Below are positions 28,034 to 61,082 of a stretch of DNA of 64,000 nt, piece after piece. The position numbers and the translations under genes are program-made. The stretch is from an uncultured candidate division Zixibacteria bacterium (lineage in GTDB: Bacteria > Zixibacteria > MSB-5A5 > UBA10806). How positions within the stretch are numbered: position 1 is the first letter of the stretch; every line of letters begins with the position of its first letter. The stretch covers positions 256,001 to 320,000 of the forward strand of contig CAWFQL010000012.1 of assembly GCA_963817915.1 (NCBI GenBank), given 5' to 3'. The notes below the pieces were generated by a model. That model saw only the letters and a list, made by a program, of their open reading frames with translations, made no database searches and was not told the origin of the DNA.

Positions 28034-28053
28034 ATTTGAGGAATTGGAGATAG

Positions 28054-37781: not shown

Positions 37782-37790
37782 GAGGATGAG

Positions 37791-39542: not shown

Positions 39543-40003
39543 GCTTCGAACCAAAAATAATAGGCTTTTTGTGCAATTGGTGCAGCTATACGGGGGCCGA
39601 TCTGGCCGGGACGGCGCGAATGAAATATCCCGCCAATATGTTGAGCATTCGGGTAATGTGCAGCGGTCGTATTGATCCGGGATTTATCTTCGATGCCTTC
39701 AGCAATGGCGCCGATGGTGTTATCGTCTGCGGATGTCATCCCGGCGATTGCCATTATGTCGAGGGCAATTATAAGGTCATGCGCAGAATTCCTCTCACAA
39801 AGAAGATTCTCGAAAATATGGGGATTCCACCGGAGAGGCTTCAACTGGAATGGGTATCGGCTTCAGAAGGCGGCAGGTTTCAGGAAGTGGTGACTAAATT
39901 TACAGAGAAGATCAGGGCTATGGGGCCGTTGGACCTTAAAGAGCTGAAATTTGTCCCGGAGGCGATAATGGAGCAACATCTTGAAGGCAGGGACGCGACA
40001 TGA
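39539..40003 (+). CDS. mvhD: MvhD [2Fe-2S] adaptor
   Basis: CNWCSYTGADLAG, RVMCSGR, GCHPGDCHY, WVSASEG. Confidence 0.95.
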   Translation: MSFEPKIIGFLCNWCSYTGADLAGTARMKYPANMLSIRVMCSGRIDPGFIFDAFSNGADGVIVCGCHPGDCHYVEGNYKVMRRIPLTKKILENMGIPPERLQLEWVSASEGGRFQEVVTKFTEKIRAMGPLDLKELKFVPEAIMEQHLEGRDAT

Positions 40004-40974: not shown

Positions 40975-42452
40975 AGCAAATTTTGATTGACCCAATTACC
41001 CGATTGGAAGGACATGGCAAAATCCATCTTTTCGTAAACGACGACGGCAGTCTGGCGAATTGCTATTTTCAGGTGCCGGAGCTTCGCGGATTCGAGAAAT
41101 TTTGCGTGGGGCGACCAGTCGAGGAAATGTGCCGCATAACAACTCGCATCTGCGGAGTTTGCCCCGAAGCCCATCACATGGCGGCCGCCAAAGCCGCCGA
41201 CGCTGTCTACGGTGCTACAATTCCGTCAGCGGCAAGAAAGCTGCGGGAATTGGCATATAACGCATTCTTTGCGGGCGACCATACCACTCATTTCTACGCC
41301 CTGGGCGGGCCCGATTTTGTCTGCGGCCCGGATGCCCCTGCTCCAGAACGAAATATTCTCGGGGTCATTGCCAAAGTCGGTATCGATGCTGGCAGGAAAG
41401 TTATCGCACAACGTGCCGGAGGCCAGCGAGTAATCGAGATTATCGGCGGCAAAAAGATACATCCGGTTACCGCCTTGCCGGGCGGCATGTCCAAGCGAGT
41501 TACAAAGGAAGAACAGCAGGAAATAATCAAGATCGCCGAGGGAATGGTTGAATTCGGAAAATTTACAATAAAAGTGCTGAATGATATCGTGCTGGCCAAT
41601 AAGGCGTATGTCGATTTAATTCTTTCCGATACATTTACGCACAAAACCTATAACATGGGCCTGGTCGACAATAACAATAAGGTTAATTTTTACGACGGCC
41701 TTGTACGGGTTACAGCGCCCGACGGCACAGAACACGCCATATATGCGCCAAAAGATTATCTTGATTATGTTGCCGAGCACGTGGAGCCTTATAGTTATCT
41801 CAAATTCCCATTCTTGAAAAAAGTTGGCTGGAAAGGATTTGTCGACGGCAAGGATTCGGGCGTTTATAAGGCCACCCCTCTTTCGAGATTAAATGTCTCC
41901 GATGGTATGACAACGCCGCTCGCGCAAGCAGAATATGAACGGTTTTATGAAACACTGACCGGAGACCGATCGGGAAAGACACCGGTGCATTCAACATTGG
42001 CGACACATTGGGCCAGAGTAGTCGAGTTGATGTATGCCTGCGAGGCGACATTAGCACAAGCCAAAGACGACGAGATTATATCGGATCATATATTCGATCC
42101 CCCAACCGGAATCGTCGGAGAAGGTGTCGGAATCGTGGAAGCGCCGCGAGGTACGTTGACTCATCATTATAAGACGGACAAGAATGGTATTATCACGGAG
42201 GCTAATCTTATAGTCGGCACCACAAATAACAACGCCCCAATTTCAATGTCGATCAAGCGCGCGGCCGAAGGCTTGATAAAAAAGGGCGAAGCCATTACCG
42301 ACGGGACATTGAATAAGATCGAGATGGCTTTTCGTGCATATGATCCATGTTTCGGATGCGCGACTCATTCATTGCCGGGTCAGATGCCAATGGAAGTAAT
42401 TGTTCACGATAGCCAAACCGGTGAAATCATCCAAAGCGTCCGGAGAAATTGA
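40971..42452 (+). CDS. mvhA: Group 3c [NiFe]-hydrogenase large subunit
   Basis: [36 protein letters not shown] plus cleavable extension. Confidence 0.95.
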
Positions 42453-42476
42453 CGCCTAATTAGCGGGCAGTACAAA

Positions 42477-42968
42477 ATGGCGAAACCGTACTTGATTCTT
42501 TGTCTCGGTAATGAAATATTATCAGACGACTCCTTTGGATTTAAAGTTTCCAATGTTTTAAATAATGGAGACGATCTCGGAGAGAAGATCGATGCAGTTT
42601 TTGCGCCGCTGGCCGGGTTCAATCTTCTTGATCTTCTTAAAGACCGTTCGTCCGTTCTGATCGTAGATACCATAATTACTTCTAACGCGAAGCCGGGGAC
42701 TATCCACTATTATCCCATGGGGCATTTCACGCCATCGAAACATCTGACCTGCTCGCATCAGGTCAACCTTCCCACCGCGCTTGAATTCGGCAGGCTTCTA
42801 GGAATGACCATACCTCAAAATATCGATGTCCTGGCAATCGAAGCCCAGGATGTCGAAACATTATCGGAAAAAATGACCGAAAATGTCTCCGCCTCATTGG
42901 AACCGGCAATCGAGACCATAAAGAATTGGATAACGCTTAGAAATAATGGAGACAATGCTGACGAATAG
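42477..42968 (+). CDS. hycI: Hydrogenase maturation protease
   Basis: LGNEILSDDSFG, IVDT, SHQV. Confidence 0.88.
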   Translation: MAKPYLILCLGNEILSDDSFGFKVSNVLNNGDDLGEKIDAVFAPLAGFNLLDLLKDRSSVLIVDTIITSNAKPGTIHYYPMGHFTPSKHLTCSHQVNLPTALEFGRLLGMTIPQNIDVLAIEAQDVETLSEKMTENVSASLEPAIETIKNWITLRNNGDNADE

Positions 42969-43319: not shown

Positions 43320-43883
43320 TTGATGGTACAAGAGGGCAAGCCCAGCTATCTCGTTCAACTTCACCGGTTTCAGCGCCCGATGCTCCGATATATAATTTCC
43401 CTATGAACAGGGGATACCATTTCTAATACAAACCGAACCTTTTCTTGGGATCATTCAGATCAAGTCCTGCAATATGATTTGCGTTTAGGCATGACTAACC
43501 CACCTCTCTCTGAATGCATAATCTCCGATACGTCTTATGAAGGTTCGATGCTTTTCGGGGATTCCACATATTATTGGCAAGTCGTCGCATTTAATTCCAT
43601 AGATTCAGTAGCTGGCCCAATCTGGGCATTTCATGTGGAAATGGATACAATGCGCCTTTTAGGAGGATGCACCTACCTCCCCGGCGATGTGAACGGCAGC
43701 AATTCCTTCAATGGCCTTGACGTAACCTACGCCGTCAATTACTTTAGGGGCTCCGGTAATTCACCTACATATTCGTGCGAGCGCCCCCCGCCGGACACTT
43801 GGTATGTCGTTGGTGATGCAAACGCTTCCTGCAGCTTCAATATAATAATCAGATTGTCAATCCGGCTGAATAAACGTCATTAA
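43320..43883 (+). pseudogene. Degraded Fn3-like + dockerin-like protein; second dockerin repeat truncated
   Basis: YYWQVVAFN; GDVNGSNSFNGLDVTYAVNYF; homology breaks after GDANASCSFN; frameshift ~43442; no clear start. Confidence 0.65.
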
Positions 43884-43945
43884 TCCAGATTTTAAATATG
43901 GCCGTCCCACCGGGCCGCCTTTTTTATTTATTGATTCCAATTTTA

Positions 43946-44042
43946 TAGCACAAATTTAGCACACGCCCCGTAACCTGCAGGTAGACAATATGGGAAACAG
44001 GCTTCAAATTCCAGTCTCTCCGTACTAATTTTCGCTATTTAA
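43946..44042 (+). mobile_element. att-like junction: tRNA-Ser 3' duplicate (44003-44022) with upstream paired direct repeats
   Basis: TTCAAATTCCAGTCTCTCCG is 19/20 identical to 22340-22359; TAGCACA at 43946 and 43957. Confidence 0.7.
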
Positions 44043-44317
44043 GCCGTTGTAAATCAAGCATGTCCGATTGTGTCATGGGAGACAATGCCTACACCTGACT
44101 AAAAGAATGGGACGAATTCTATAAAATTTTCTATTTGAGAAAAATCCCTGGTGCCGATTATATAGTCACCTTCTTTTATTAAAATTAAATATGAAATCAT
44201 ATTGCGCAGTTACGGGTTATAGGTATATTAGTTAGTGTGCATTTGTCCCAAGTCTTTTGGGATATTTTGGAAATTTGAGTCTTGCATTAAATTTTAGCCA
44301 TAGCCTTGGAGGAAACG

Positions 44318-46867
44318 ATGAAACTGAAAGCTATCATTTTGTTGAGCAGCATCATGACCATATCGGTGACATCTACTCTTTGGGGACAAGAGATCACCAG
44401 GGATCAGTTTCGTAGAAATGAATGGGAAATGAAATCTCGCCGATGGCAGAACGAGAAAGCTCGTCAAAACCAGGGGACTATTCTCGATCAGACTGATTTT
44501 GACGCCAAGTATTGGGAATTACATTATGATGTGACCAATATTTCCGGCCAGATATTGACAGGCAAGGCGATCCTGACATCCCAATCCAATATCAATGGGC
44601 TTTCTTCAATCGATTATAATTTCACGACCGGCATGACTGTCGATTCTGTCCGCATGAACGGTGCTCCCGTAACCTACACCCGGCCTACTAATATCCTTCG
44701 AATTACCCTGAATCGGGGCTATAATACCGGAGAACTTTTCACCACCACAGTCTATTATCATGGCCACCCCGATCCCAGCGGCTTTGGCTCTTTTACCTGG
44801 AACAGCCATAACGGCCAGCCGATTATATCCACTCTTTCCGAGCCCGAAGGGGCTAGAGATTGGTGGCCCTGCAAAGACGGACCCCACGACAAGGCCGACT
44901 CTGCCGATGTTTACATCACATGCGGTTCGAGTTACACAGGGGTATCCAATGGCGTGCTTGTCAGCAACCAGGATAACGGCAACGGCACCCGTACTTTCCA
45001 TTGGCATATTTCATATCCTATTACGACCTATCTGATTTGTATCGCAATCAGCAACTATCAATCATTCACGGATTGGTATGTGGGAATTAACGGCGATTCC
45101 ATGCCGGTAACAAATTATGTTTATCCAGAATTGTACAGTCAGGCGGTTGAGGATTTCAATATTGTCCCGGGGGCGCTGGAAATCTATGCCAGCATGTTTG
45201 GTGAATATCCGTTCTTCAGGGAAAAATTCGGTTACTCTTTATTTCCCTGGGGCGGCGGTATGGAGCATCAAGACAATGTCTTTTTCGGCTCTATGCTAAT
45301 CTCCGGAAACCATTATTATGATTGGATCACGGTGCATGAGATGAGTCATCAATGGTTTGGCGACGCCATCACTTGCGATATCTGGCCCGACGTTTGGATG
45401 AATGAGGGATTTGCCTCATATTGCGAAGCGCTTTATTATGAGCGGCTGTATGGTTTTGATTATTATGTCAGCTACGAACAAGGCAATAACGGGGTCTACG
45501 ATCCCAGCGGCCCAATTTATAACCCGAGCGATCTTTTTAATGGCAATACCGTCTACAACAAAGGCAGTTGGGTTCTACATATGCTTCGGGGAGTAATGGG
45601 AGATTCGGCTTTCTTTCAAGGGATGCGTTCTTATGCCACAAATCCAGCCTGCTTTCAGGGTACAATAACGACCAGAGGTTTTCAGCATCTGATGGAGCCA
45701 TTCTATGGGGATAGTCTTGGTTGGTTTTTCGATGAGTGGGTATGGGGGCAGAACCGTCCCATATATCGATATTCATGGACAAAATCAAATTTGGGCAATG
45801 GCCAGTATGAGGTCTTCCTGCATGTTCGCCAGACCCAGACCACTCCTGCTCCCAATGTTTTTATAATGCCTATTAAAATCTATCCCCGAATCAATAACGT
45901 CGATACGGTTATCGCGATCTGGAATGATGCCCGCGTAAATGATCTTAGATTTGTGGTCAATGGCAATCCGGCAACCCTCGATTTTGACAAGGTGCCCTGG
46001 ATTCTGCGAGATGCTGCTTCTGAAGCTTATACGATGAATATAGTTACTACTTCACTCCCGAATGGTGCAGTCGGAATTGCCTACGGCGATACCATTGAGG
46101 CTCGCGGAGGGATTCTGCCGTATCATTTCAATATCCAAAGCGGACATCTGCCAGCAGGATTAGCGTTGAATAGCAATACCGGAGTCATCAGCGGCACACC
46201 GACAACAGTCGAGATAGATTCATTTACCGTGCGATGCACGGATTCATCTGGCCCGACCAAAACCGATGATCAGAATTATATAGTCGCAATTGCTTCTTCA
46301 CCGGTTTTGGAAATCCTGACGTTATCATTACCCAACGGCCGTCAGGATAGCACCTATGAAGAGATAATAAACGTTCTGGGCGGCATCCAGCAATATCATT
46401 TTAGTGTGGCGAGCGGTATTTTACCCGGAGGATTGATATTAGATGCAACTGGCGGTAATATAAACGGTGTACCGACAACAGCCGAAGTAGATACATTCAC
46501 GATTCATTGTGAAGACTCGTCTATCCCGCCGCTTTTTGATAACCAACTCTATATAGTCACTATTGAGCCCGCGGCTGGCTGTCAATATGTTCCGGGTGAT
46601 ATAGCAGGCAATGGAGTCTTCAATGGCCTCGATGTTACCTACAGCGTAAATTATTTCAAGGGTGGTACGCCACCGCCGTTTAGTTGCGAATGCACTCCCG
46701 GCAATATCTGGTATGTGGCGGGCGACGTGAATAACTCATGTTCGTTCAACGGGATCGATGTTACCTACATGGTCAATTATTTCAAGGGAGGACCAGCCCC
46801 GATACCATGCGTTGATTGTCCACCTGCCGGCTTTTCTCGCTCGTCTTCAATTATTCCCGAACAATGA
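44318..46867 (+). CDS. Secreted M1 family aminopeptidase + two putative Ig domains + dockerin-like domain
   Basis: GGMEH, HEMSHQWFG, NEGFASY, YNKG; LPNG..G.LP.GL.L...G.I.G.PT x2; GGAGG RBS before ATG 44318. Confidence 0.92.
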   Translation: MKLKAIILLSSIMTISVTSTLWGQEITRDQFRRNEWEMKSRRWQNEKARQNQGTILDQTDFDAKYWELHYDVTNISGQILTGKAILTSQSNINGLSSIDYNFTTGMTVDSVRMNGAPVTYTRPTNILRITLNRGYNTGELFTTTVYYHGHPDPSGFGSFTWNSHNGQPIISTLSEPEGARDWWPCKDGPHDKADSADVYITCGSSYTGVSNGVLVSNQDNGNGTRTFHWHISYPITTYLICIAISNYQSFTDWYVGINGDSMPVTNYVYPELYSQAVEDFNIVPGALEIYASMFGEYPFFREKFGYSLFPWGGGMEHQDNVFFGSMLISGNHYYDWITVHEMSHQWFGDAITCDIWPDVWMNEGFASYCEALYYERLYGFDYYVSYEQGNNGVYDPSGPIYNPSDLFNGNTVYNKGSWVLHMLRGVMGDSAFFQGMRSYATNPACFQGTITTRGFQHLMEPFYGDSLGWFFDEWVWGQNRPIYRYSWTKSNLGNGQYEVFLHVRQTQTTPAPNVFIMPIKIYPRINNVDTVIAIWNDARVNDLRFVVNGNPATLDFDKVPWILRDAASEAYTMNIVTTSLPNGAVGIAYGDTIEARGGILPYHFNIQSGHLPAGLALNSNTGVISGTPTTVEIDSFTVRCTDSSGPTKTDDQNYIVAIASSPVLEILTLSLPNGRQDSTYEEIINVLGGIQQYHFSVASGILPGGLILDATGGNINGVPTTAEVDTFTIHCEDSSIPPLFDNQLYIVTIEPAAGCQYVPGDIAGNGVFNGLDVTYSVNYFKGGTPPPFSCECTPGNIWYVAGDVNNSCSFNGIDVTYMVNYFKGGPAPIPCVDCPPAGFSRSSSIIPEQ

Positions 46868-47204
46868 GCAGAATAAGCTGACAGGGAAATTGCATTAATT
46901 GATCCATTTTAAGGCAGGTCAACAATTGCCTTGACAAGAACCAATATATCCTATTATTTATTACAAAGGTCATTTGCTTCAGACCATGCAGGCTTAGAGC
47001 CTGCAAAAAAGACGGTCTTAAAAACATAAAATTTATATGATTAACAAATTGAGCTTATCACATTTTCACAGCATGGAGGTAAACTATAAATGATATTCTG
47101 CCTTTTAATGCTACCCGCAAAAGAAACTTAAGAAACTTGGAAATCAGGAAAATTATCGCAAAAAGATCTTTTTGAAACCCGTTAGAATTGTCTGGAGAGA
47201 GAAA

Positions 47205-49268
47205 ATGAAAAATAATTGTCTGCTTTTTGCGGCCTTGTTGCTTCTTATGACTTGGTCGATCGCTGTGGCCAATGTTAATCCTTTCGATAATTCTCAGACG
47301 CCCATTATAGCTGATCAGGGCGGCCCGGACGCTTATGGTTATCGGTGGATTGATAGCGACAGCGCCGGCGGCCCCACTTATAACTGGATTGATATTACCA
47401 GTATTGGTATTCCAGTCCTGGGACTTGGCGACGATAACAACGTCGGCCCTATGCCGATTGGATTCGAATTCCCATATTATTGGTATACAGTTAACCATAC
47501 TTGGATTGGCTCCAACGGCTACATTGAATTTTTAAACAACTATAATTACGCCCCCGCCTTTGCTAATATACCGCTTGCAACCCCTCCAAACGATTATCTC
47601 GCGCCTCTCGCAAGCGACCTCGATTTTTCAAGAGGAAACCCGTCATGCTATTACTACAGCAATAATGCCGATAGCTTTGTAGTCTCCTGGATTAATGTGG
47701 GCGAATATGACTATATCGACTCTGTGCATACATTTCAAGTGATCCTGTCCGGTAGTGATTCTTCTATCACTTTCCAGTACGGTATCTGTAACCTTGGATC
47801 AACCAATAATGTCATTGGAATCGAGAATGTCAATGGACAAGTGGGCATACAGTATCTGCGGCAAAATCTCCCCGCAAATCACATGTGGCATGATGGCCTG
47901 GCATTGAAATTCCACCCGGTTCCCAACCCTAGTTTTGTAGTTCATGATGCTGGTATGTTAGATGCGTTCCAAGATGGTTCGGGGGCTAATTTCATTCCAA
48001 GAAATATCGGATATACTATTCGCGCCCAGGTCAAAAACTTCGGCAACCAGGTCGAGACTCTAATTCGCTGCAGCTGTATAGTTAAGCGCAATACAACTAC
48101 GGTATTTCACGATACGCTCGATGTGGGGACACTTAATCCCAGCCAGGCAATTTGGTTAGATTTTCCTGAATTATTTATTCCTGATAGGGATACGACCTAT
48201 AAGGTAACTTTCGTCACCTTAATGGCCAGCGATGCCAATACTACTAATAATACGCTTATCGCCGAGCTGGAATCGTTTACGACGCCGCAGACATTTAGAT
48301 ATGACGATGGTTTAGGGGAAACGAGTCGCAGTTGGACTGGCGATTTTTCTGGTTTTGCAGTCGAATTTCAGATACCTGAAGCTGTATCTCTTGACACGGC
48401 CAGCATCGATATTTTTTCAGTCACCCTGGCGGGCCCGCTTTATGTATGGATTTTGCCGGATGACGGCACTGGAAGACCCGATGGCGCCAATCCACTGGCG
48501 GGCGACACGGTGGATGTTTCAGCCGCGGGCTGGGTAAATGTCGACGTAACTGCGGCGAATTTGATTATTCGCCCCTAATGCCAAGTTCTTTATTGTAGGG
48601 GTGCATGCCCTGCAAAATACTTTTACGTTCGCTATGGATCAGACTCCGCCTTTGTCTAATAGAGGCTGGGAATTTACGAGTGGATACGCGCCTGACCGCG
48701 ACAGGTCGATATCCGACAACATGTTCAGAGCATACTGCTCGGCCGCCCCTCCCGGAACATATCGGGAGTTGTATACAACCCGGACGGCACAACGCCTTTA
48801 GCTGATGTTGCTATCACGACCTATGACACCGCGGATGCGGTCGTCGCAAATAACACTTCCGGCGTGGCTGGTGATTTTCTTGTGACGTTGCCCAGTGGAA
48901 CATATCATCAGCTATTCCATAAGGATGGATTCCGCGATACGACGGTCCAGAATATTGTAGTTACGTTTAATCAAACCACAACACTCAACGTTGTAATGCA
49001 ATTGAGGGGCGGCTGTGAATATGTTGTTGGCGACATTAACAATAGCGCTACATTCAACGGCCTTGACGTTACCTATGGCGTCAACTATTTCAAGGGAGGA
49101 GCGGCGCCTCCGTTCAGTTGCGAATGCACTCCCGGCCATACCTGGTTTGTTGCGGGCGACGTCAATAACAGCTGCAGTTTCAATGGACTCGATGTTACTT
49201 ACATGGTGAATTATTTCAAGGGAGGGGCTGGTCCTATCCCTTGTGTTGATTGTCCTCCGGCGAGGTAG
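47205..49268 (+). CDS. Secreted protein (GPD-GY domain, CarboxypepD_reg-like domain, dockerin-like domain); apparent frameshifts at ~48575 and ~48756
   Basis: Signal peptide; GGPDAYGYRWIDSD; ORFs 47172/48601/48864 join by removing one C and adding one A in short runs. Confidence 0.75.
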
Positions 49269-49367
49269 GGCTCCCGCTTGCATTGGCTATTCGGGCGATA
49301 AAGACGCCTATTCCGATGAAAGCCTCCGAAAGCCCAATTGATTAAATGGCGGCAAAATATTGTTGCT

Positions 49368-49400
49368 AATAAGGCGGCCTAACACGGGCCGCCTTTATTA
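49368..49400 (+). terminator. Intrinsic terminator
   Basis: AAGGCGGCC-taacacg-GGCCGCCTTT. Confidence 0.75.
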
Positions 49401-49584
49401 TCCCTTATGACTCTTACGCCGTCAGAAAGAGGTTTCTGGTGCCACCTGGAAATCGACCAAGACCGGCCGAGAAGGCTAAGATCGAAAGACTCGAAGCAAT
49501 TTATATTCCTGGTAACGCTTGACTTAATTTTGAAATGATGTATTTTTGAATCAAATAGAGCTTCTGCTTCTTCGAGGTGAAGAT

Positions 49585-52582
49585 ATGCGCTGGCAAAAAA
49601 CTCTTATAATTCTAATCGTGAACATATATCCATTGATGTCTCGTGCTGAGGTTGCACAAGTGTCATGGGCCGGGGCATATGTTCTCACAATGTCGAAGAC
49701 AACGCCGGTTATCGATGCAAGGTTGAGCGTGAGCTTGGCGACCAAGACTGACGATGATGTTACGCCTGTCTGGGTCTTTTTTACTGACAAGGGAATTGCT
49801 GATAAGGCGGAATATGCCGACGCCATTAGCGCCTTGGAATCGAAAATGACCTTCGCGGCGTACGAATCGTCGACTGAAAACTCGAGGCAAAAACGATATT
49901 TCCGATTTCAGAGATTTGCCTGTGGATATAAATTACGTTAATCGAGTACTCGGTACGGGAGCTCATTATCGGCAAAATCTTAGATGGTTCAATGCGGTGA
50001 CAGTTGACGCAACACCTGAGCAGATAAGAAAAATCGCGAATTTTCCATTTATCAGGTATATAAGATTGGTAGCCAGCTGTAGGATTGATCATGATGTTGA
50101 TTTGTCGCCAATCTCAGAAAATTCAGAGCTTGTTACTCTGGATTATGGGCCGTCCGCAATTCAGCTAAATCAGATTAACGTCATCCCTGCTCATGAGCTT
50201 GGATTTAAGGGGCAGGGAGTTATTATTTGTATGATGGATGTTGGCTATAAGCAGGGCCATGACGCGTTCCAAAATATCATTAATTCCGGCAGGCTCCTGG
50301 CACAGTATGATTTTATTAATCACGATTACAATACCGATTATGATTCCAATCAAGATGTTCCCGGCCAGGCGGACCATGGGACGCTTACATGGTCAACTTT
50401 GGGGGGAGAAGCATCCGGAAATCTTTATGGGCCGAGCTATATGGCTAGCTTCATCCTGGCGAAAACAGAGGATATATCATCCGAGCATCATATTGAAGAA
50501 GATAATTGGGCAGCCGGGGCTGAGTGGGCAGATTCGATAGGAGCCTCGGTCATATCATCGTCGCTTGGTTATCGCTATTTCGATTCAGGGCAGGGCGATT
50601 ATCAATATAGCGAATTGAACGGCCACACTACTATCGTGGCGATTGCCGCATCCTTAGCGGCCTATAATGGAATTGCAGTCTGCAATGCGATGGGGAATGA
50701 AGGTAATACTCCGGGGTCGTTGATCTCTCCAGCAGACGCCGACTCCATTCTATCTTGCGGGGCGGTTGCTTCCGACCGAACGCTGGCATATTTTTCATCA
50801 TGGGGACCGACCTACGATGGCAGAATCAAGCCCGAAGTTTGCGCCCAGGGTGTGTCGACTGTTTGCGCCGATCCTTACAATTATCACGGATACACAACCG
50901 CCTCAGGAACATCGTTATCTACTCCATTGGTCGGAGGCTCATCGGGAGTGTTGTTATCAGCGCATCCCAATTGGACTCCCTTGATGGTCAGAGAAGCATT
51001 GATGATGACAGCCGACCGGTATGATTCGTCCGGAAATGATTACGGATGGGGCATCATGGATGTATCCAGGGCGTTGTATTATAATCCTCAGGGTGACATA
51101 ATTTTTGATTATCGGCCGACTATTTTTATTGGAATAAATCAACCGTTAACCGTCAATGCCTCTATCACTGGCGGGGCGGGAATTGCCAATGCTTATCTTT
51201 ATTATCGGATAGGAGAAAGCGGCGGCTATAATGAGATTCTGATGACGACATCGGATAATATACATTATTCGGCACAGATACCGGGACAGCCGGGCGGGAC
51301 AATCTATTACTATATTAAGGCGGTTGACGCTAACGGCAAGTATGCATTCAATCCTCTTGGCGGGCAAGCCCATCCATTTACCATAATTCCGGGCGCGCTT
51401 TCATTCATCGATTCATTTGAGAATGGCCTTCAATATTGGAAATCGGGAGGCGCGAACAATTTTTGGGGTTTGACTGCGGCCTATGTTCAATCAGGCAATC
51501 TTAGCATTACCGATTCCCCTACAACCGATTATCGAGATAATACAAATAGCTGGATGCAGTCTCAATTCGGACTTGACTTGACTGGCGTATCATCTGCGAC
51601 TCTTTCGTTTTACTGGCGCGGAATTTTGCAGTCGGGCCACGACACGGTATTTGTCGAGGCCTCTACTAACGGTGGGACAACCTGGAATCGGTTTTCTCAA
51701 TCCCTCACGGGCAGCATGACGAGTTTCACGCAGTATTCTGCCAACCTGAATTCCTATTTCGGCCAGCCTGACGTTCGTCTCAGGTTCCATTTTGTGAGCG
51801 ACGCAGCCACTCGCCGCGAAGGAATTTATATCGATGATATACAGATTACTGAATCAAGGCCTGCTAATATCGCTTATCGGCCATCATCGGTAAGCGATAC
51901 GCTCAGTGAAGGGCAAAACCATAATACGAATATCATAATAAGTAATACCGGGGGAGCCAATCTTATCGTAAACCTGAGCGCTACTGAATTTGGCATGGTT
52001 GCCGGGGCCAAAATTCAAGGTGATACGCCCAGAATTCTAAACACATGGCTGTTTGTTACCCCAGCGGCTGATACTATAGCGAGCGGCGATAGCCTGATTG
52101 CACAAGTAACATTGAACGCCAGCGCGATAGCCCATGGAAATTACTCCGGGCAAGTCCGTTTAGCCTCGAACGATCCCGATTCGGGCCTGATAATCATTCC
52201 CGTAGCTTTGAATGTGGTGGGGACATGTCAATATGTTACCGGCGACGCCAACGGAAATGGCAATTTTAATGGTCTTGACGTTACCTATAGCGTCAATTAC
52301 TTCAAAGGCGGTGCTTCACCAACCTACTCTTGCGAATGCACTCCGGGCCATACTTGGTTTGTCTCCGGCGATGTCAACAACAGCTGCAGCTTCAACGGTC
52401 TTGACGTAACCTACATGGTAAATTACTTCAAGGGCGGAGCAGGCCCGATACCGTGCGTGGATTGTCCTCCGGCGGGACTTGCGCCACCGGCGCAGATTGC
52501 GCCCCCAATTTCTGCGGTTGAGCCAATCATTACGCCGACTCTTAGACCAGACAGGAAAGAAAAAGCGATCAATGTGGAATAA
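49585..52582 (+). CDS. Secreted S8 subtilase + accessory beta domains + dockerin-like domain; apparent +1 frameshift ~49860
   Basis: Triad MMDVG, DHGT, GTSLSTP; AMGNEG; propeptide VWVFFTDK in ORF 49546. Confidence 0.88.
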
Positions 52583-52613
52583 TTTAGGGGCATTGAACTA
52601 ATTTAAAGTAATA

Positions 52614-52638
52614 GGGGCGGCTGAAAAGCCGCCCTTTA
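52614..52638 (+). terminator. Intrinsic terminator
   Basis: GGGCGGCT-gaaa-AGCCGCCC-TTT. Confidence 0.8.
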
Positions 52639-52656
52639 TATTTGCCTCAATTCCCG

Positions 52657-52751
52657 TAGCCATTATGTAGCACGGCCTATAACGTCTTGAAAGACAAGGG
52701 CATTCCTGGCTTCAAATCCCAGTCTCTCCGACACTATTTTTCGGCACTTAG
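52657..52751 (+). mobile_element. att-like junction: tRNA-Ser 3' duplicate (52703-52730) with upstream paired direct repeats
   Basis: 27/28 identical to 22332-22359; TAGCCAT (52657) and TAGCACG (52668), 11 bp apart as at 43946/43957. Confidence 0.75.
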
Positions 52752-52979
52752 GTCATTACGAATCATTCATACTCGGGCAGGAAAGTCAATGCCGGCAGAC
52801 ACGCTGGACTCAAAATCCAGGGCTTCTGAGCCCCAAATCGGTTCTATCGCTGAATATCGCATATTTTATTTTTCAAATTTATATTTTAGTATTTGATTTG
52901 GAAGGCGAAAATACCTATAATATAATGTCTTTTGTAGTGGCTTCTTTGTAAAGCGTGTGTTGATCTGCGATCGGGTGGA

Positions 52980-55349
52980 ATGGCGCTAATTCGAAGAGTA
53001 GTTGTATTAATAGCAATTATATGCGGTGCGGCGTATAGCGATACGCTGCCATCTAAATATCATACATTTGCCGGAGCAGTATCCGAGCTCCAGGCACTTG
53101 TTGCGGCAAACCCTTCCATATGTAAATTAGATTCTATTGGTTATTCTCATCGCGATTCGCTTCCATTTTATCAATTCAAGATCTCAGACAATGTCGTGAC
53201 CGATGAGGACGAACCCGCGATCTTCTTCAATGGCGGCGTGCACGCCGACGAGGTACTGGGCGTCGAAGTCGTTCTCAATTTCTGCCATGATATCATTGCA
53301 AAATATAATTCAGGAGATACTGCCATACAGAGGTACATTAATAGCTATGAGATTTTCGTCTTCCCATTCCTGAATCCCGAAGGACATGTGGCGGTTGAAG
53401 ATGGCGATCTCGACTGGCGCAAAAATAAGGCGGATAATAATAATAATGGCCTATTCGATTTTCACGATGGAGTCGACTGCAATCGGAATTTTGATTTTGG
53501 CTGGAATATCGATGATGGGCTGGCGGCGACCACGCCTGAAAGCCTGATGTATAAAGGGCCATTTCCATTCTCCGAGCCTGAATGCGTGGCGGTGCGCGAC
53601 GCTGGAATGAAATATAAACCGATTATCGCGGTTGATTACCATGCGCCAACTTACGGTCTGGGAGAAGTCGCTTATTATTGCTGGTACTGGTACGCGACCG
53701 AGGGCGGCCATGGATTCGCACCCGATGAGGTATCGATGTACCATATTGGTGTCGGATTTGCGGCTTCGATTGTCAACGATAGAGGGGACTCTACATATCA
53801 GGCTCGTCGCGCCTTGGTGAATAAAGGGGATTATAAAACATTTTTTTATGGCAATTTCGGCACGGCGGCCATGGTTTGCGAAATCTCGGATACCACTATT
53901 CAAGATACATCGATGGTTGATTCCATATGCCGACGACATTTGCCAGGAATGTACTATCTGCTCGGCCGCGCCGGATACGCAAGACTAACCGGGGTTGTCA
54001 CGGATTCATTAACGGGCCAGCCACTGGATGCTACAGTAGAGGTGCTTGAAGCCACAAGCCTTGATATAAATCCTCGTCATACGAAGCCCAATACAGGGAG
54101 ATATGACAGATTGATCGATCCCGGCACATATACATTGCGGTTCCAGAAGACCGGCTATACTACAAAAACCGTTAACATGGTCACCGTAAATAATTCTGGA
54201 CCGACAGTCAGGAATGTACAATTGGCTTCGCAATCTATCCCGCCTCAGGCTCCAGTCCTGGTATCGCCGGCAAATGGTACATCATTCGTAGATTCGGTGG
54301 CATTGAATTTCGATTGGAATGATGTTCCCACCGCGACGAGATACATAATTGAAATCGCCAGAGATTCCAGTTTTGCGGATATATTTCAATTCGATTCATT
54401 ATTGACCGCGTCTAATTATAGAAATACGATATCATTTACGCCGTCACGATATTATTGGAGAGTGACTGCCCATAATATTTTTGGTTACTCGCCCTGCAGT
54501 ACAAAATCGTGGTTCGATATTCTTGAAGGTTCACCTCCGGCAGTACCGATATTGCTTTTGCCTTTGAATGGTTCTACTCCGGGAACGCCTCGTCCCCTTT
54601 GCGATTGGAATAACTCAGCCGGAGCAACCGGATATATATTTGAAATCGATACTGATAGCCTGTTCGATCCGCCAGTCGAAGTCGATTCCAATATTATTCC
54701 TTCGCAATATCAGATTGTCGATTCGTTGATGAATGACAGATATTTTTGGCGCGTGACAGCATTCAACGGGCATGGTTTTTCTGCGCGGAGCGCAATATGG
54801 CATTTCGATATTAATATTGGCGATTTACCCGCGATTCCTTCGTTGATTTTACCCGCCGTCGGATTTATTTCCGATAGTGCTTATGTAAATTTTGATTGGT
54901 CGGATATTTCCGGAGCAATCAGATACGCGATACAGATTGATAATGATAGCCTGTTTAATTCTCCAGCAATATCAGATACGAGTATAATTTCTTCTAATTA
55001 TAGGAATATCGATTCGCTAACTAATTCGAACTATTACTGGCATGTGAAGGCAAGGAATGACATTGGATGGTCTGCCTATTCGCCTTCACGGTCTTTTAAT
55101 GTTCAAGTAGATACCGCAATTTTTTATCTCGTTGGAGACGTCAATCATTCAGGCGCGGTAAACGGTCTGGATGTTACCTACCTTGTAAACTTCTTCAAAG
55201 GAGGAACTCCTCCACCTCTTAACATTGATGGTTTATATGTCGAGGCAGACGCTAACGGCAGCTGTACCGTCAATGGCTTAGATGTGACATACCTCGTAAA
55301 TTATTTTAAGGGTGGCCCTTCCCTCATCGATGGGCATTGCATTCATTAA
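52980..55349 (+). CDS. Secreted M14 zinc carboxypeptidase + CarboxypepD_reg + three Fn3-like domains + dockerin-like domain
   Basis: GVHADE, NPEG, RKN, DCNRNF, DYH; Y(Y/F)W(R/H)V repeats. Confidence 0.9.
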   Translation: MALIRRVVVLIAIICGAAYSDTLPSKYHTFAGAVSELQALVAANPSICKLDSIGYSHRDSLPFYQFKISDNVVTDEDEPAIFFNGGVHADEVLGVEVVLNFCHDIIAKYNSGDTAIQRYINSYEIFVFPFLNPEGHVAVEDGDLDWRKNKADNNNNGLFDFHDGVDCNRNFDFGWNIDDGLAATTPESLMYKGPFPFSEPECVAVRDAGMKYKPIIAVDYHAPTYGLGEVAYYCWYWYATEGGHGFAPDEVSMYHIGVGFAASIVNDRGDSTYQARRALVNKGDYKTFFYGNFGTAAMVCEISDTTIQDTSMVDSICRRHLPGMYYLLGRAGYARLTGVVTDSLTGQPLDATVEVLEATSLDINPRHTKPNTGRYDRLIDPGTYTLRFQKTGYTTKTVNMVTVNNSGPTVRNVQLASQSIPPQAPVLVSPANGTSFVDSVALNFDWNDVPTATRYIIEIARDSSFADIFQFDSLLTASNYRNTISFTPSRYYWRVTAHNIFGYSPCSTKSWFDILEGSPPAVPILLLPLNGSTPGTPRPLCDWNNSAGATGYIFEIDTDSLFDPPVEVDSNIIPSQYQIVDSLMNDRYFWRVTAFNGHGFSARSAIWHFDINIGDLPAIPSLILPAVGFISDSAYVNFDWSDISGAIRYAIQIDNDSLFNSPAISDTSIISSNYRNIDSLTNSNYYWHVKARNDIGWSAYSPSRSFNVQVDTAIFYLVGDVNHSGAVNGLDVTYLVNFFKGGTPPPLNIDGLYVEADANGSCTVNGLDVTYLVNYFKGGPSLIDGHCIH

Positions 55350-55371
55350 TTAACCCCCCCCAGGAGGTCCG

Positions 55372-58300
55372 ATGCGAATTGCGATCAGAGTTGTATTGAT
55401 GATTCTGGCGCTATTCATGATCGCTCAATCCTCATCGAACAGGGTTGTGCTCAATCAGGCCAATATCGATGTTGCGCCTATGATTATGAATAGTTCTTCC
55501 CAGGCACAAACCAGCCTAAGTTTTAGAATTGCTGGAATTGAAGAAGAGCCGACGGCGGTCGCCGGCATGACCTACCAAAATATTACTGCGATTACACCCA
55601 ATCCGATGAAGTTCGGTGTTACCGGAGAGGAAGGTCTTCCCGAATTGCCCGTATTCGCCCATTTGATTGGGATTCCGGATCAATCAGGCGTTAGAATCGA
55701 AATTTTATCTTCATCATACGAGATCATCGAGAATGTCGATGTCATGCCATCACAGCCATCGCCGGTCGAAGGATCACCAGAGATCCCGCCATTCACCAAG
55801 GATGACGCTTTTTATCAAAAGAATGAATTTTACCCATCGGAAGTGGCGCAATTGGGCGAGCCCATAATATGCCGCGATCTAAGAATGATACAGGTAGAAA
55901 TAAATCCTGTTCAATACAATCCGGTGACAAAACAATTAAAGGTATATACGAGTATTGATTATAATCTCGTCTATGAAGGAACTGATTCAAGGAATATCAA
56001 GATACGACGAAATAACAATATCTCCGAGACGTTTCTGCCATTATATAGATCGCTTATACCCAATGCCGATGAAATGCTGGCAGATTACAATCCAATCAGG
56101 GGCGGATATTTGATTCTTACCCCGGATGCATTCGCAGACACAATCCAGCAACTAGCCCGCTGGAAGCATCTCAAGGGATATTCCGTGGTCGTCACCAGAG
56201 CAACGGAATTGGCGCCATCGGGCACGCCATCATCAAGCCAGATTTTCACTTATATACAGAACGCCTACCAAACTTGGGCAGTCCCGCCCGAATTTGTTTG
56301 TATTGTAGGAGATGAGAGCGGATTAACAACTTATTTTCAGGATTCTCCATATGGTGGCGGTTACGCGTCCGATCAAGACTACTCCTGCGTAGACGGTTCC
56401 GATTATTTATCGGATGTTATGGTAACAAGAATGTCTGTTCCAAATTCAATTGCGACTCTTCGGGTAGCAATGTGGAAAGCTATTAAATATGATAGCGATC
56501 CGTTTATGGGAGATCCCGGTTTCTATGCCAGGGGACTGTCAGTCGGCGGCAATGTCGGCGGCGCGATAACTCCGAGGCTAACAACTTTATGGGTTCGCGA
56601 GCAACTTCTACGTCACGGTTATTCTCAAGTAGATACGGCGTTTTGCACAAGTTCGAGCTGGAGCTGCAATGCTGACCCGCAAATACCATTATCGTTCAAT
56701 AATGGCGTTGGTATCACGAATGTAAGAGGCGCTGGAAGCGCGAGCGGCTGGTGGGCTCCGCCTTTTAATACTGGTAATATAGACCAACTAACGGCGAATA
56801 ACAAGATGGGTGTGCTTGCCGTCTTAACATGCGGGACGGGGCAATTCGGCGAGCCTGATTGTTTTGGCGAGCACTGGATTCGCGCTGGAATTTTACCAAA
56901 TGCGTTGAAAGGAGGCCCGGCATATTATGGAGTTTCCGATGGAAGCACTCATACAAAGTGGAATAACCCCATAATGATCGGGTTCAATTGGGCTTATCTA
57001 GAAGAGGGCATATACAATTTCGCGAGCGCTGCCTTCAGGGGAAAATTAGAGGATTATAATACCTATCCCAGATTCGTAGGACCCGGAAGCTGGGTTGAAC
57101 ATTACTTCCATACATATAATACGCTCGGGGAACCTGAACTCGAAATTAGAACCGCTGCCCCCGTGGCAATGACGGCGACATATACTACTACAATCCCGGT
57201 TGGCTCCAGTATGTTAGCAGTTCATGTTACGGACGCAAGCAGGCCTCTTGTCGGTGCCTATGTTTGCCTTCAAAAGGATGCTGCCGCTCCAGACGGCGAA
57301 GTATTTGTGGGAGGCAGGACAGACAGCAACGGCGACATTACTTTTAATTTCAATACTACTGTCGCCGGCACTATGAATGTCACAATAACATCTCATAACT
57401 ATATTCCCCACAGAGGCACTGTAGCAGTGCAGGCACAGGCGGTTGCCGTCAATATCAATAGCATAGCGCTGGATGACGACAACAGCGGCAATTCATCTGG
57501 CAACAGCGATGGCAATGTTAATCCATCGGAGACCGTGGAGTTCGCAGTTGCCTTAAGGAATTTCGGCAACTCAATTACGGCCACCAATGTCAACGCAACA
57601 TTGACGACGCCAAATTCTGATATCACGATAACGGTTCCGACTCAATCCTACGGCAGTATCGCCCCGGGAGGAATTGCGAATTCCAATAAATTCGCGGCGC
57701 ATTTCGCCAATAATCTCCCCCAGGGTGAGCATTACATACTGCAATTGAATATCACATCCGACCAGGGATCCTGGACGGCCGCGGTACCTGTCGATATCAA
57801 ATCCATGCTGTTTTCATTGCAGGGAATGACATTCCCCAATGATCCCAATAGCAGACTCGACCCCGGCGATTCCTCCCAATTCGTAGTCACATTGCAGAAT
57901 ATCGGTGAGCTTGGCGGAACATCACTGGTCGGTAACCTGACTTGTCCCGACACGGGAGTTGCCATAGTCAGCGGCACCGGCAGCTTTGGGAATATTCCGA
58001 TTGGAGGCTCGGGATCCAATTCAGGCACACCGTTCATAGTTCAAATATCCCCGGAAATGTACCAGGGACATAATCTGAATTTTAACCTGATGATTACATC
58101 CAGCAACGGAAGTGTTACCAACAAGGTGATATCGGTCGTCGCAGGAAATATTGTTTCTACCGATCCCATGGGGCCGGACAACTATGGATATTATATTTAT
58201 GATAATACCGACGCCGCCTTCATGCCATCCCCAATATATAATTGGGTAGAGGTTAGTCCCTATGCCGGAGGTTCCGGAACCAGGGTTGTATTCCCTGGAA

Positions 58301-61023
58301 GTAATACCGACGACAACGCCGAGGTAATTTCGCTTCCATTCAATCTTAAATATTATGGGCAAAATTTCACAAATGTCCTTGTTTGCATCAATGGTTTTGT
58401 CGCTTTCGATACTTCCCGAGTCGACATCGGAGGCAATCACTGGACAGCATTTGACAACAGCCAGATTCCAGAACCGGGAGCTCCCGATGGTATTATAGCG
58501 CCATTCTGGGATGATCTTGAATACACCGGGAATGATGGCGTCTTCAAATACTATGACACCGCCAACAATAGATTCATTCTGGAGTGGAAAAATTGCACTC
58601 ATGCGGGCCAATCGACTCCGTATCCGGAAACATTCCAGATGATAATCTACGATAACAATTTTTACCCCACTCCCACTGGTGATTGCGAAATCGTGTTTCA
58701 ATACCAGGTTGTTTATAACAACGATAACGATACTGATAATCCACTACAGCCGGGACTTTACTGCACTGTGGGAATGCAAAATCTTTCAAATAGTGACGGT
58801 CTTCAATATACATACGATAATTTCTACCATCCGGGCGCAGCAGTACTGGAGGCGGGCCGTGCGATAAAGATAACAACTGCCGTCGGATTGCAGCAGCCGC
58901 CAAACATGGCCTACGACCCATCGTCGTTTGCGAAGAATGCTAATATGGGTCAGATCGTCCTGGATACACTAACAATTTCCAATACGAGCGGCGGCCCACT
59001 TGTATTTTCGCTTAATTCATTTGCCGATAATCGCCTGCTTTCTGAAAATGTAGATAGAAGGAGAATACAGGAAGAATATGCCAATCAGAAACCGATCGGA
59101 TATACGCAATCGATAGGGGCAAAACCCGACGATGCTAATCAGCCAATATATCCGCCGATGCCTCTTAATCAGGGTGGTCCTGATATCTTTGGCAATATTT
59201 GGATTGATTCTGATGAACCCGGGGGACCGTCATATAGTTGGGTCGACATAAGCGGCTCGGGGACACCGGTTTCATTGACAGACGACAGCTTTGCCGGGCC
59301 GATCGATATGGGAATGAATTTCTATTTCTATGGCACGGACTATTCTCAAATTTATATCGGTTCAAATGGCATCGTATCATTTGGCGCAGGGACGAATTCT
59401 TATAGCAATATAAATATACCCAACGCGGCAGACCCGAATAATTTTATTGCCGCATGCTGGGATGATATGAATCCCGGCGCGGGCGGTTCGATCTATTATT
59501 ATCATGATACCGCAAATAATAGATTCATAGTGAGCTATGTTGCCCTTCCGTTCTATTCGGGCGCCGCTGATGCTACATTCGAAATTATACTATATCCCAA
59601 CGGCCGGGTATTAATGGAATATGGTTCGTTGAATCCTGGATCCAGAGGACTAAATCAGCTCACTGTCGGTATTGAGAACGTTGACGGTACCGATGGCCTT
59701 CAGGTAGTAAACAATGCCAATTATTTGCACACCAATATGGCGATATTATATTCTCCCCCCGCCCGGTGGCTTTTGACGAATATTCATGAAGGCATAGTGG
59801 TGGCAGGAATGAGCGCTCCGGCAGTAGTGACATTCGACGCGACCGAATTGCCCGCCGGTATCTATACCGGACACCTTGACCTCGATACCAACGATCCGAA
59901 CCTGGCTTCAGTGGATATTCCCGTGAATTTCAATGTTGGCAATGCTCAACTTCCTAATATTGTTCAGACTCCAAATAGCTTTACGGATACGCTTTATGTC
60001 GGCAACTCTCGGAATCACACGTTGAAGATTAAAAATACTGGGGTGGGAATTTTAACAATCTCGTTTACTCATGTCGGATCATGGATTACAATCGCTCCGG
60101 GACCATACAACATCAATCCAAGCGACAGCCTTATGCAGACACTCACGGTAAATGCTTCCGCGATGTCACCTGGAGCATATTCCGGCAGCATAACTACGCT
60201 GTCAAACGATCCTGATTCCCCATCAATTAATACACCCTTGACACTCCTTGTGCGAAGCTTGCCGCGTCCGCGAATAGATGTAGCATCAACAGGGATAGTG
60301 GATACGTTAAATCAAGGGACTCAGACTACCAGAAATATTAAGATCAGGAATTTGGGCGACGCGCCGCTTATCGTAACTCTAAGCGCCATCGAAAACAGCA
60401 TCGCGCTGCATAATTCAAATGATGCTATCAATCCATTAAATATTTCCGGCAAGAAACCTATCGAAGGACAGATCCAGACTTTAGATAATCAGTCTTATGA
60501 TCCGCCCCTAATTCTGAATACTTGGTTATTCATCAGCCCCGCGGTTGATACTGTTGCGGCTGGAGACAGCATTACGGCGATTGTCACTCTGAATGCTTCC
60601 GCAATCGCTCCCGGTCCCTATCTTGGTCATATCAATTTGGCGTCCAACGACCCAGATTTTCCGTCGATTAATATACAGGTAAATCTACAGGTATTACCGG
60701 CAGGACCCGACTGTATCTATGTTGCGGGCGATGTAAACGGCAACGGAAGTGCCAACGGGCTTGATGTGACGTATGCTGTGAATTTCTTTAAAGGAGGCAG
60801 TGAGCCGCCTATCTCGTGCGATTGCCCACCGCATGGAATCTTTTTCGTCGGCGGAGATGTCAATGGCAGCTGCTCCTTCAACGGTCTGGACGTGACTTAT
60901 ATGGTAAATTACTTCAAAGGCGGTCCCTCCTACGCGCCTTGCGTAGATTGCCCCCCAACGGGAATTGCCCAGCCGGCATCTCCGGTTCAGCCAGTAAAGA
61001 AGCCAGATACAAGTACCAATTAA
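55372..61023 (+). CDS. 1883-aa gingipain-family (C25) protein with propeptide, Ig-like and GPD-GY domains, and dockerin-like domain
   Basis: GLPELP propeptide, PVQYNP, WKHLKG, IVGD, SDQDY..DG.DYL.DV, TCGTGQF..CFGEHW, YNTLGEP. Confidence 0.85.
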   Translation: MRIAIRVVLMILALFMIAQSSSNRVVLNQANIDVAPMIMNSSSQAQTSLSFRIAGIEEEPTAVAGMTYQNITAITPNPMKFGVTGEEGLPELPVFAHLIGIPDQSGVRIEILSSSYEIIENVDVMPSQPSPVEGSPEIPPFTKDDAFYQKNEFYPSEVAQLGEPIICRDLRMIQVEINPVQYNPVTKQLKVYTSIDYNLVYEGTDSRNIKIRRNNNISETFLPLYRSLIPNADEMLADYNPIRGGYLILTPDAFADTIQQLARWKHLKGYSVVVTRATELAPSGTPSSSQIFTYIQNAYQTWAVPPEFVCIVGDESGLTTYFQDSPYGGGYASDQDYSCVDGSDYLSDVMVTRMSVPNSIATLRVAMWKAIKYDSDPFMGDPGFYARGLSVGGNVGGAITPRLTTLWVREQLLRHGYSQVDTAFCTSSSWSCNADPQIPLSFNNGVGITNVRGAGSASGWWAPPFNTGNIDQLTANNKMGVLAVLTCGTGQFGEPDCFGEHWIRAGILPNALKGGPAYYGVSDGSTHTKWNNPIMIGFNWAYLEEGIYNFASAAFRGKLEDYNTYPRFVGPGSWVEHYFHTYNTLGEPELEIRTAAPVAMTATYTTTIPVGSSMLAVHVTDASRPLVGAYVCLQKDAAAPDGEVFVGGRTDSNGDITFNFNTTVAGTMNVTITSHNYIPHRGTVAVQAQAVAVNINSIALDDDNSGNSSGNSDGNVNPSETVEFAVALRNFGNSITATNVNATLTTPNSDITITVPTQSYGSIAPGGIANSNKFAAHFANNLPQGEHYILQLNITSDQGSWTAAVPVDIKSMLFSLQGMTFPNDPNSRLDPGDSSQFVVTLQNIGELGGTSLVGNLTCPDTGVAIVSGTGSFGNIPIGGSGSNSGTPFIVQISPEMYQGHNLNFNLMITSSNGSVTNKVISVVAGNIVSTDPMGPDNYGYYIYDNTDAAFMPSPIYNWVEVSPYAGGSGTRVVFPGSNTDDNAEVISLPFNLKYYGQNFTNVLVCINGFVAFDTSRVDIGGNHWTAFDNSQIPEPGAPDGIIAPFWDDLEYTGNDGVFKYYDTANNRFILEWKNCTHAGQSTPYPETFQMIIYDNNFYPTPTGDCEIVFQYQVVYNNDNDTDNPLQPGLYCTVGMQNLSNSDGLQYTYDNFYHPGAAVLEAGRAIKITTAVGLQQPPNMAYDPSSFAKNANMGQIVLDTLTISNTSGGPLVFSLNSFADNRLLSENVDRRRIQEEYANQKPIGYTQSIGAKPDDANQPIYPPMPLNQGGPDIFGNIWIDSDEPGGPSYSWVDISGSGTPVSLTDDSFAGPIDMGMNFYFYGTDYSQIYIGSNGIVSFGAGTNSYSNINIPNAADPNNFIAACWDDMNPGAGGSIYYYHDTANNRFIVSYVALPFYSGAADATFEIILYPNGRVLMEYGSLNPGSRGLNQLTVGIENVDGTDGLQVVNNANYLHTNMAILYSPPARWLLTNIHEGIVVAGMSAPAVVTFDATELPAGIYTGHLDLDTNDPNLASVDIPVNFNVGNAQLPNIVQTPNSFTDTLYVGNSRNHTLKIKNTGVGILTISFTHVGSWITIAPGPYNINPSDSLMQTLTVNASAMSPGAYSGSITTLSNDPDSPSINTPLTLLVRSLPRPRIDVASTGIVDTLNQGTQTTRNIKIRNLGDAPLIVTLSAIENSIALHNSNDAINPLNISGKKPIEGQIQTLDNQSYDPPLILNTWLFISPAVDTVAAGDSITAIVTLNASAIAPGPYLGHINLASNDPDFPSINIQVNLQVLPAGPDCIYVAGDVNGNGSANGLDVTYAVNFFKGGSEPPISCDCPPHGIFFVGGDVNGSCSFNGLDVTYMVNYFKGGPSYAPCVDCPPTGIAQPASPVQPVKKPDTSTN

Positions 61024-61056: not shown

Positions 61057-61082
61057 AAGGGCCGCCCGGAAGAGCGGCCCTT
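61057..61082. terminator. Terminator between convergent genes
   Basis: AAGGGCCGC-ccggaaga-GCGGCCCTT. Confidence 0.7.

Follow-up and report, generated by a model that had tools for sequence, protein, structure and literature searches.

Dockerin tails on secreted proteins of an uncultured Zixibacteria bacterium and their probable cohesin partners at the cell surface

Introduction

Why should six consecutive genes, four of them in peptidase families, end in the same small domain? The question is posed by a 64,000-nucleotide stretch of DNA (the window) from an uncultured candidate division Zixibacteria bacterium (assembly GCA_963817915.1, contig CAWFQL010000012.1, positions 256,001 to 320,000, forward strand), in which the genes between positions 43,320 and 61,023 share a dockerin-like C-terminal tag. 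A first reading, made from the letters alone (the sequence-only reading), took these genes for a cellulosome-like proteolytic complex, or their tag for a sorting signal. From sequence comparison and structure models, we consider it probable that the tag, a type I-like dockerin, tethers secreted cargo to cohesin proteins that are predicted to be anchored at the surface by type IX secretion (the system is abbreviated T9SS).

Results

The tail as a dockerin

Six copies of the domain translate where the sequence-only reading had placed them, with the M14 copy beginning at 55125:

43662..43841, + strand, truncated dockerin of gene 1; repeat 1 complete, repeat 2 ending after SCSFN
46577..46825, + strand, dockerin of the M1 gene, six Cys; GL / GI at positions 10-11; the copy taken for the structure model
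49011..49259, + strand, dockerin of gene 3, six Cys; GL / GL
52226..52471, + strand, dockerin of the S8 gene, six Cys; GL / GL
55125..55346, + strand, dockerin of the M14 gene, short, two Cys; GL / GL; above the Pfam Dockerin_1 cut-off
60712..60957, + strand, dockerin of the C25 gene, six Cys; GL / GL

The D-x-N-x-x-x-x-x-N-G-L-D loops that had been pointed out are found in each copy, GI standing for GL once, in the M1 protein, and the extra cysteines are as described (six in four copies, two in M14, with copy 1 broken off). In an alignment of 58 copies, used for residue conservation and synonymous sites, D1 was present in 58/58, N3 in 57-58/58, N9 in 55-57/58 and D12 in 58/58, with S, N or D at position 5, and there are two calcium-binding loop-helix repeats, as in type I-like dockerins (PF00404). 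Against Pfam Dockerin_1, for which the cut-off is 22.9 bits, the M14 copy scored 29.5 bits in its protein and the six-cysteine copies 16-21 bits in whole proteins, while the C25 copy scored 29.5 bits when isolated. An AF2 model of the tail, made from an alignment of 59 copies, had a pLDDT of 95. The top Foldseek rows for this model were all dockerins, at E-values that are weak (at least 0.017), the domain being short, and an independent structure search gave Z 10.4 and an rmsd of 1.8 over 68 residues to 4dh2_D, with dockerins in all of its top 14 rows. By repeat motif and predicted fold, the tails are true dockerins of the type I-like kind, which upholds the identity first proposed for them.

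The cysteines were tallied in the 59-copy alignment, where all six occur in 37 rows and two in 15 rows. C2 and C37 are lost together in two rows, and C39 and C81 together in one; it is solely because of such joint loss that the alignment suggests disulfides C2-C37, C39-C81 and C55-C78 in the long form.

A genome-wide tag with broad cargo

All genome-wide counts refer to a genome of 3.33 Mb that is 94% complete. When it was searched with a profile built from the window copies, as the sequence-only reading had advised, the tag was found on 61 open reading frames (ORFs) at a threshold of at least 70 bits (three weaker partial matches being excluded), each copy lying no more than 55 residues from the ORF end; reversed ORFs gave no match at E<=10. 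Signal-peptide-like starts, by a crude call, are present on 43/61, and among the 18 without one, many represent the downstream part of a split gene. The C-terminal domain (CTD) motif that marks T9SS type A cargo is carried by 0/61, nor does it occur within the 600 nt downstream to which this check extended.

Peptidases make up 14/61 of the tagged ORFs (M1, three S8, five M14, M6, C1 and three C25, three of the 14 having been recognised through an upstream piece where the gene is split) and are the largest catalytic class among the tagged proteins. About 15 tagged proteins are beta-propellers (LVIVD, FG-GAP, SBBP, sortilin), and further cargo includes beta-helix, phosphoesterase, cupredoxin, Omp28 and long Ig-repeat proteins, many tagged proteins having no Pfam match. 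The scanned set of tagged and cohesin ORFs, which leaves out certain cohesin proteins and the upstream parts of certain split genes, yielded no glycoside hydrolase (GH) or carbohydrate-binding module (CBM) family, CBM3 included. Because the cargo is this broad, the tag is, on these domain assignments, a general class marker and not the mark of a six-member protease set. Four small (175-195 aa) secreted proteins consist of a short uncharacterised domain and a dockerin, without Pfam match (L023, G000 C12:532895-542087; L034:1697-2221).

The notion of a dedicated protease complex came from the window genes, which are given here with the hairpins near them:

43407..43883, + strand, gene 1, a remnant: a piece like the pre-tail region of other tagged proteins, then the truncated dockerin
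44318..46867, + strand, M1 aminopeptidase gene: signal-peptide-like start, two He_PIG Ig domains, C-terminal dockerin
47205..49268, + strand, gene 3: secreted protein with NIDO-like and CarboxypepD_reg domains, in three frames in the assembly
49373..49393, + strand, GC-rich hairpin followed by a T-rich run; found by eye, absent from the terminator scan
49585..52582, + strand, S8 subtilase gene: MAM-like domain, C-terminal dockerin, one frameshift
52613..52636, + strand, terminator-like hairpin between the S8 and M14 genes; terminator scan
52980..55349, + strand, M14 zinc carboxypeptidase gene: CarboxypepD_reg, fn3-like repeats, C-terminal dockerin
55372..61023, + strand, C25 (gingipain-like) gene: propeptide, NIDO-like and Ig domains, C-terminal dockerin
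61057..61082, no strand assigned, terminator-like hairpin, bidirectional, 3' of the C25 gene; terminator scan

Pfam confirmed the M1, S8, M14 and C25 assignments. The M1 motifs GGMEH and HEMSH-x18-E and the S8 D/H/S motifs are unbroken, and the HADE / NRN / His / Glu motifs of M14 are present. Gene 1 contains stops and is without a start, signal peptide or catalytic domain, and a Pfam scan found no catalytic domain in gene 3. In the C25 protein the Cys is retained, with Ala at the position of the gingipain R catalytic His (RGAGS vs TGHGS), so that it does not have the gingipain-type His-Cys dyad. The His is likewise missing at that position in 12/12 aligned C25 homologues, and because of these two observations the proteolytic activity of the C25 protein is uncertain. 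These proteins form a C25 subfamily with xRG[AWYE]x instead of the gingipain GHG, Cys retained (window 55372-57180, loci L096-L105), and at least six C25-like ORFs of this kind are present in the genome, three of them dockerin-tagged and three with a CTD. The closest C25 relatives, in 11 loci fetched with 10 kb around C25, are labelled Candidatus Zixiibacteriota (6), Ignavibacteria (two) or unclassified (three), a distribution that points to Zixibacteria as the source of the genome.

A dedicated cellulosome-like complex, in which endo-, amino- and carboxypeptidases would complement one another on one scaffold, would account for the four peptidase families among the six genes, for the rank of peptidases among the catalytic classes of the tag and for the conserved adjacency of M14 and C25. 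It is nevertheless highly improbable in our estimation: 47/61 tagged ORFs were not assigned to any peptidase family and share the same recognition residues; M1, gene 3 and S8 were not found within 10 kb of C25 in any of the 11 loci; a multi-cohesin scaffoldin was not found; and the C25 protein is without its catalytic His. A conserved six-gene cluster was rejected, since M1, gene 3 and S8 are not neighbours of C25 in relatives. The six genes do not behave as one operon either, with gaps of about 300-430 nt and the terminator-like hairpin at 52613-52636; M14 and C25 are the sole closely linked pair (22 nt), and M14 adjoins C25 in 5/11 loci.

The five genes other than gene 1 had been called intact, which fails for two of them, gene 3 being broken near 48570 and 48750-48770 and S8 near 49850-49865, in its propeptide region. 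Orthologues of both are single ORFs. Split genes occur elsewhere in the genome too (among tagged genes and in a secretin, an S8 paralogue and a PorV-like match with stops), which suggests that indels are frequent in this assembly and makes it plausible that the frameshifts in the window are assembly errors. The signal peptides ascribed to the same five genes were recovered, by a hydrophobicity check only, on M1, gene 3, M14 and C25, and more weakly on the N-terminal piece of S8.

Cohesin partners

A profile search found no cohesin in the window, in agreement with the sequence-only reading. The genome nevertheless holds 20 proteins with 23 cohesin-like domains by iterated profiles, whose scores are inflated, the profiles containing these same sequences, and the count takes in one weak match and one fragment; 14 of the proteins have the CTD motif. 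Matches to PF00963 over cut-off lie on contigs other than the window's. The common cohesin scaffold that had been conjectured is thus represented by cohesin-family domains on about 20 proteins elsewhere in the genome, and the search for cohesins did yield candidate partners. Solved cohesins are matched at E 9e-13 by the profile of one subfamily (A) and, at E 9e-10 with a TM of about 0.75, by the model of one A domain (pLDDT 94); the A subfamily has both the PF00963 profile and the predicted jelly-roll fold of a cohesin. Several cohesin proteins are just a signal peptide, one cohesin and a CTD, and the largest, at 1,869 aa, has one cohesin and Ig repeats. The T9SS genes SprA, PorU and PorV-family are present, with seven PorV-profile matches and at least 150 CTDs in the genome.

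Many cohesin genes are interleaved with dockerin genes in a cluster on contig C18, which encodes an adaptor that joins a cohesin to a C-terminal dockerin, proteins composed of cohesin and CTD, others in which a divergent dockerin lies internally, and a tagged long Ig-repeat protein. The order of this cluster is retained in 9 family and order genomes fetched, some partial through contig ends, and the cohesin-dockerin adaptor is conserved within it. A stand-alone cohesin adjoins tagged genes in four family genomes fetched. Two stand-alone cohesins with signal-peptide-like starts are without a CTD (L012:5801-6349, equivalent to G000 C11:106800-107348, and L005:1276-1755), the former highly conserved and, in several genomes of the family, next to genes for tagged propellers; it is possible that they act as shuttle or chaperone. 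Giant open frames of 7,588 and 5,825 residues, dockerin-ended, lie inside the cohesin cluster (L084, L082; G080 C13, G119 C10). In six proteins (L007, L008, L009, L010; G000 C18, C7) the internal dockerins, of EIAD / TVAD-like type, are flanked by the cohesin and by a beta-rich domain that precedes the CTD, and the domain that follows the internal dockerin was scored as a further cohesin at 13% probability.

From recognition code to docking

Dockerin positions 10-11 and 17-18 set cohesin specificity. In the 58 copies, repeat 1 has G in 56/58 and L in 51/58 at positions 10 and 11, and repeat 2 has G in 51/58 and L in 46/58; both repeats conserve the residues at and around 10-11 and 17-18. This uniformity might have come from recent DNA duplication or gene conversion, an explanation that was rejected on finding the synonymous sites saturated (synonymous identity among copies 0.47, vs 0.45-0.46 expected at saturation). 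The tag is under purifying selection. The code is GL in this genome, and relatives have codes of their own, taken from about ten top-scoring copies per genome: G-[SAG] in G119 (10/10 rows), I-L in G045 (10/10 full rows) and mostly L-x, with a one-residue insertion, in G080. Matched passages of PMC12484212 describe species-specific recognition in type I pairs, and dual binding by their symmetric repeats.

A survey of 121 genomes of the phylum with both profiles found the dockerin in 116/121 and the cohesin in 118/121. Two cohesin-positive genomes missed by the dockerin profile have 32 and 67 Pfam dockerin matches, and the three cohesin-negative genomes have 0, 1 and 2. SprA is retained in all five genomes that the dockerin profile missed.

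Orthologues of the window proteins exchange one tail for another. Among the 11 C25 loci, two end in a GL dockerin, three in dockerins of other codes and two in a CTD, with four cut off; gene 3 orthologues have a CTD in 7/7 fetched; and of the S8 orthologues two end in a CTD, one in a dockerin and one in an IPTL-CTERM exosortase tail (L117:898-3399, - strand), with one cut off. That the dockerin takes the place of a T9SS tail on C25, as had been proposed, is shown directly by these swaps. On orthologues of the S8, C25, M14 and gene 3 proteins, the T9SS type A CTD (TIGR04183) and the IPTL-CTERM tail (TIGR04174) stand at the C-terminus in the position of the dockerin, to which they are unrelated in sequence and fold. 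T9SS and exosortase tails mean cleavage and covalent anchoring, while a dockerin implies non-covalent docking.

The tail could instead be a stand-alone cap held by calcium and disulfides, or a signal recognised by some receptor other than a cohesin, for instance a PorV-family barrel, with cohesins serving internal dockerins only. Internal dockerins do lie directly beside cohesins in six T9SS proteins, and the seven PorV-profile matches offer candidate receptors. A cap is unlikely, because it would not need the same residues at 10, 11, 17 and 18, which are nonetheless shared by about 58 unrelated proteins whose synonymous sites are saturated; moreover, the code is uniform within each genome and different between genomes, T9SS-keeping genomes without cohesins are also without dockerin expansion, and a conserved adaptor fuses cohesin to C-terminal dockerin. 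Taken as a whole, this alternative strikes us as quite improbable. Docking of dockerin on cohesin has support from these sequence comparisons that is indirect but consistent.

A proposed surface coat and its export

According to the docking model, which is the reading we favour, tagged peptidases, propellers and adhesin-like proteins would be exported via Sec, and the tail would fold with Ca2+, with three disulfides in the long form. The dockerin would then bind cohesin in two orientations, docking on one- or two-cohesin anchors that are predicted to be held at the surface through type IX secretion and may be lengthened by the cohesin-plus-dockerin adaptors. The outcome would be a mixed surface coat, in which peptidases form the largest catalytic class, instead of one fixed protease machine.

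Several observations weigh against this model. No cohesin group stood out as co-varying with the dockerin code among nine orthologue groups aligned, from few lineages; the three genomes negative for both profiles stand for two families only; and one-protein cohesin-dockerin fusions inflate co-occurrence. The B subfamily of cohesins is tied to A by profile comparison alone (98.7%), and no protein with more than two profile-detected cohesins was found in the 94%-complete genome. Because six cohesin proteins carry a divergent internal dockerin of their own, some cohesins may pair with these and not with GL tags. As to an export route for CTD-less cargo, no GspG or GspK match was found in this 94%-complete genome, and both secretins sit in PilM-type (PilMNOPQ-type) clusters. 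A complex prediction for one cohesin (C18:28402-29367, cohesin plus CTD), from one of several subfamilies, with the window dockerin scored 0.14 vs a mark of 0.32, no controls being folded alongside, and counts neither for nor against the model.

The model also poses the question of how CTD-less proteins leave a T9SS-equipped cell. A canonical type II secretion system (T2SS) had no match in the own genome, and weak, partial GspG-like matches occur in 12/24 order genomes. Alternatively, the dockerin could double as an export ticket, the cargo binding a cohesin-CTD carrier in the periplasm, crossing the T9SS with it and remaining docked at the surface. Such piggyback export would fit the finding that the tagged ORFs have no CTD motif, yet orthologues of the same proteins use one, as well as the missing T2SS pseudopilin and the cohesin proteins made up of little more than one cohesin and a CTD. 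Cargo of up to about 1900 residues speaks against it, as do the two PilMNOPQ-type systems, which could export, the weak GspG-like matches of the order and the literature, where no such mechanism was found in the passages matched; we hold it to be unlikely. Its extension to the phylum, whereby each genome would send CTD-less proteins, by the dozens or hundreds, through the type IX translocon on single-cohesin carriers, a species-specific code keeping enzymes private to their producer, is offered tentatively and with similarly low expectation.

Discussion

If docking does occur as proposed, it resembles the type I pairs of clostridial and ruminococcal cellulosomes (PF00404 / PF00963; PDB 4dh2, 5nrk, 3ul4, 6kgc), which share the predicted folds, the two symmetric calcium-loop-helix repeats and recognition residues that are uniform inside a genome and different across genomes. 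The host here, by contrast, is Gram-negative, positions 10-11 are GL, and the linker between repeats is longer, with up to six cysteines. Unlike in cellulosomes, neither a many-cohesin primary scaffoldin nor dockerin-bearing GH, cellulases or CBM3 were found within the ORFs scanned, and anchoring is predicted to be via T9SS.

Two in silico precedents exist in other phyla, and the surprise is limited for that reason. In Ca. Stygibacter (Cloacimonadota), Williams et al. 2021 (PMC8542988) proposed a complex of dockerin-tailed S8 and C25 proteins and a CTD-bearing cohesin scaffoldin, and the likeness extends to signal-peptide proteins with C-terminal dockerins, S8 and C25 included, and to a cohesin protein with a CTD. 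As described there, Stygibacter has one 3,755-aa scaffoldin with tandem cohesins, CBM2/CBM3 and GH18 and GH57 cargo. No such giant scaffoldin was found here, where one or two cohesins are carried by each of about 20 proteins, for 61 tagged ORFs, the dockerin is Cys-rich, no GH was found among the ORFs scanned, the spread is phylum-wide and the codes are genome-specific. The 'planctosome' of freshwater Nemodlikiaceae (Planctomycetes), a hypothetical cohesin-dockerin assembly in the matched passages of Andrei et al. 2019 (PMC6461901), shares with the present system a diderm host, peptidase cargo including M14 (of which five are tagged here) and the want of a link to cellulose. Those passages give it a lamin-tail anchor, P-domains, TSP3 repeats and M12B and M14 cargo, in contrast to the T9SS tails and much broader cargo found here; no lamin-tail, P-domains or HYR adaptor were seen in the cohesin proteins scanned.

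We found no paper on a cohesin-dockerin system in Zixibacteria, in a search that did not extend to supplements and subscription journals, and the matched passages of PMC3903129 (RBG-1), PMC11557425 (a survey) and 10.1101/2023.11.21.568195 hold no statement on dockerins in Zixibacteria. The profile survey and tail comparisons indicate that cohesin and dockerin likely make up a T9SS-linked system for display, non-cellulosomal in kind and spread across the phylum. If so, cohesin-dockerin assembly widens from degraders of plant polysaccharides to nearly a whole uncultured Gram-negative phylum, its cargo now includes peptidases, propellers and adhesin-like proteins, and one enzyme could reach the surface by three alternative tails. 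Genome-specific and possibly disulfide-braced pairs could also give orthogonal parts for designer enzyme scaffolds.

Other features of the window

Two proteins encoded at 22904-30093, a CarboxypepD_reg repeat protein of 1,709 aa followed by an fn3 protein of 679 aa, are both without a dockerin tail. Directly upstream of the tagged genes, at 32809-42968, lies an operon of the hydrogenase / heterodisulfide-reductase type.

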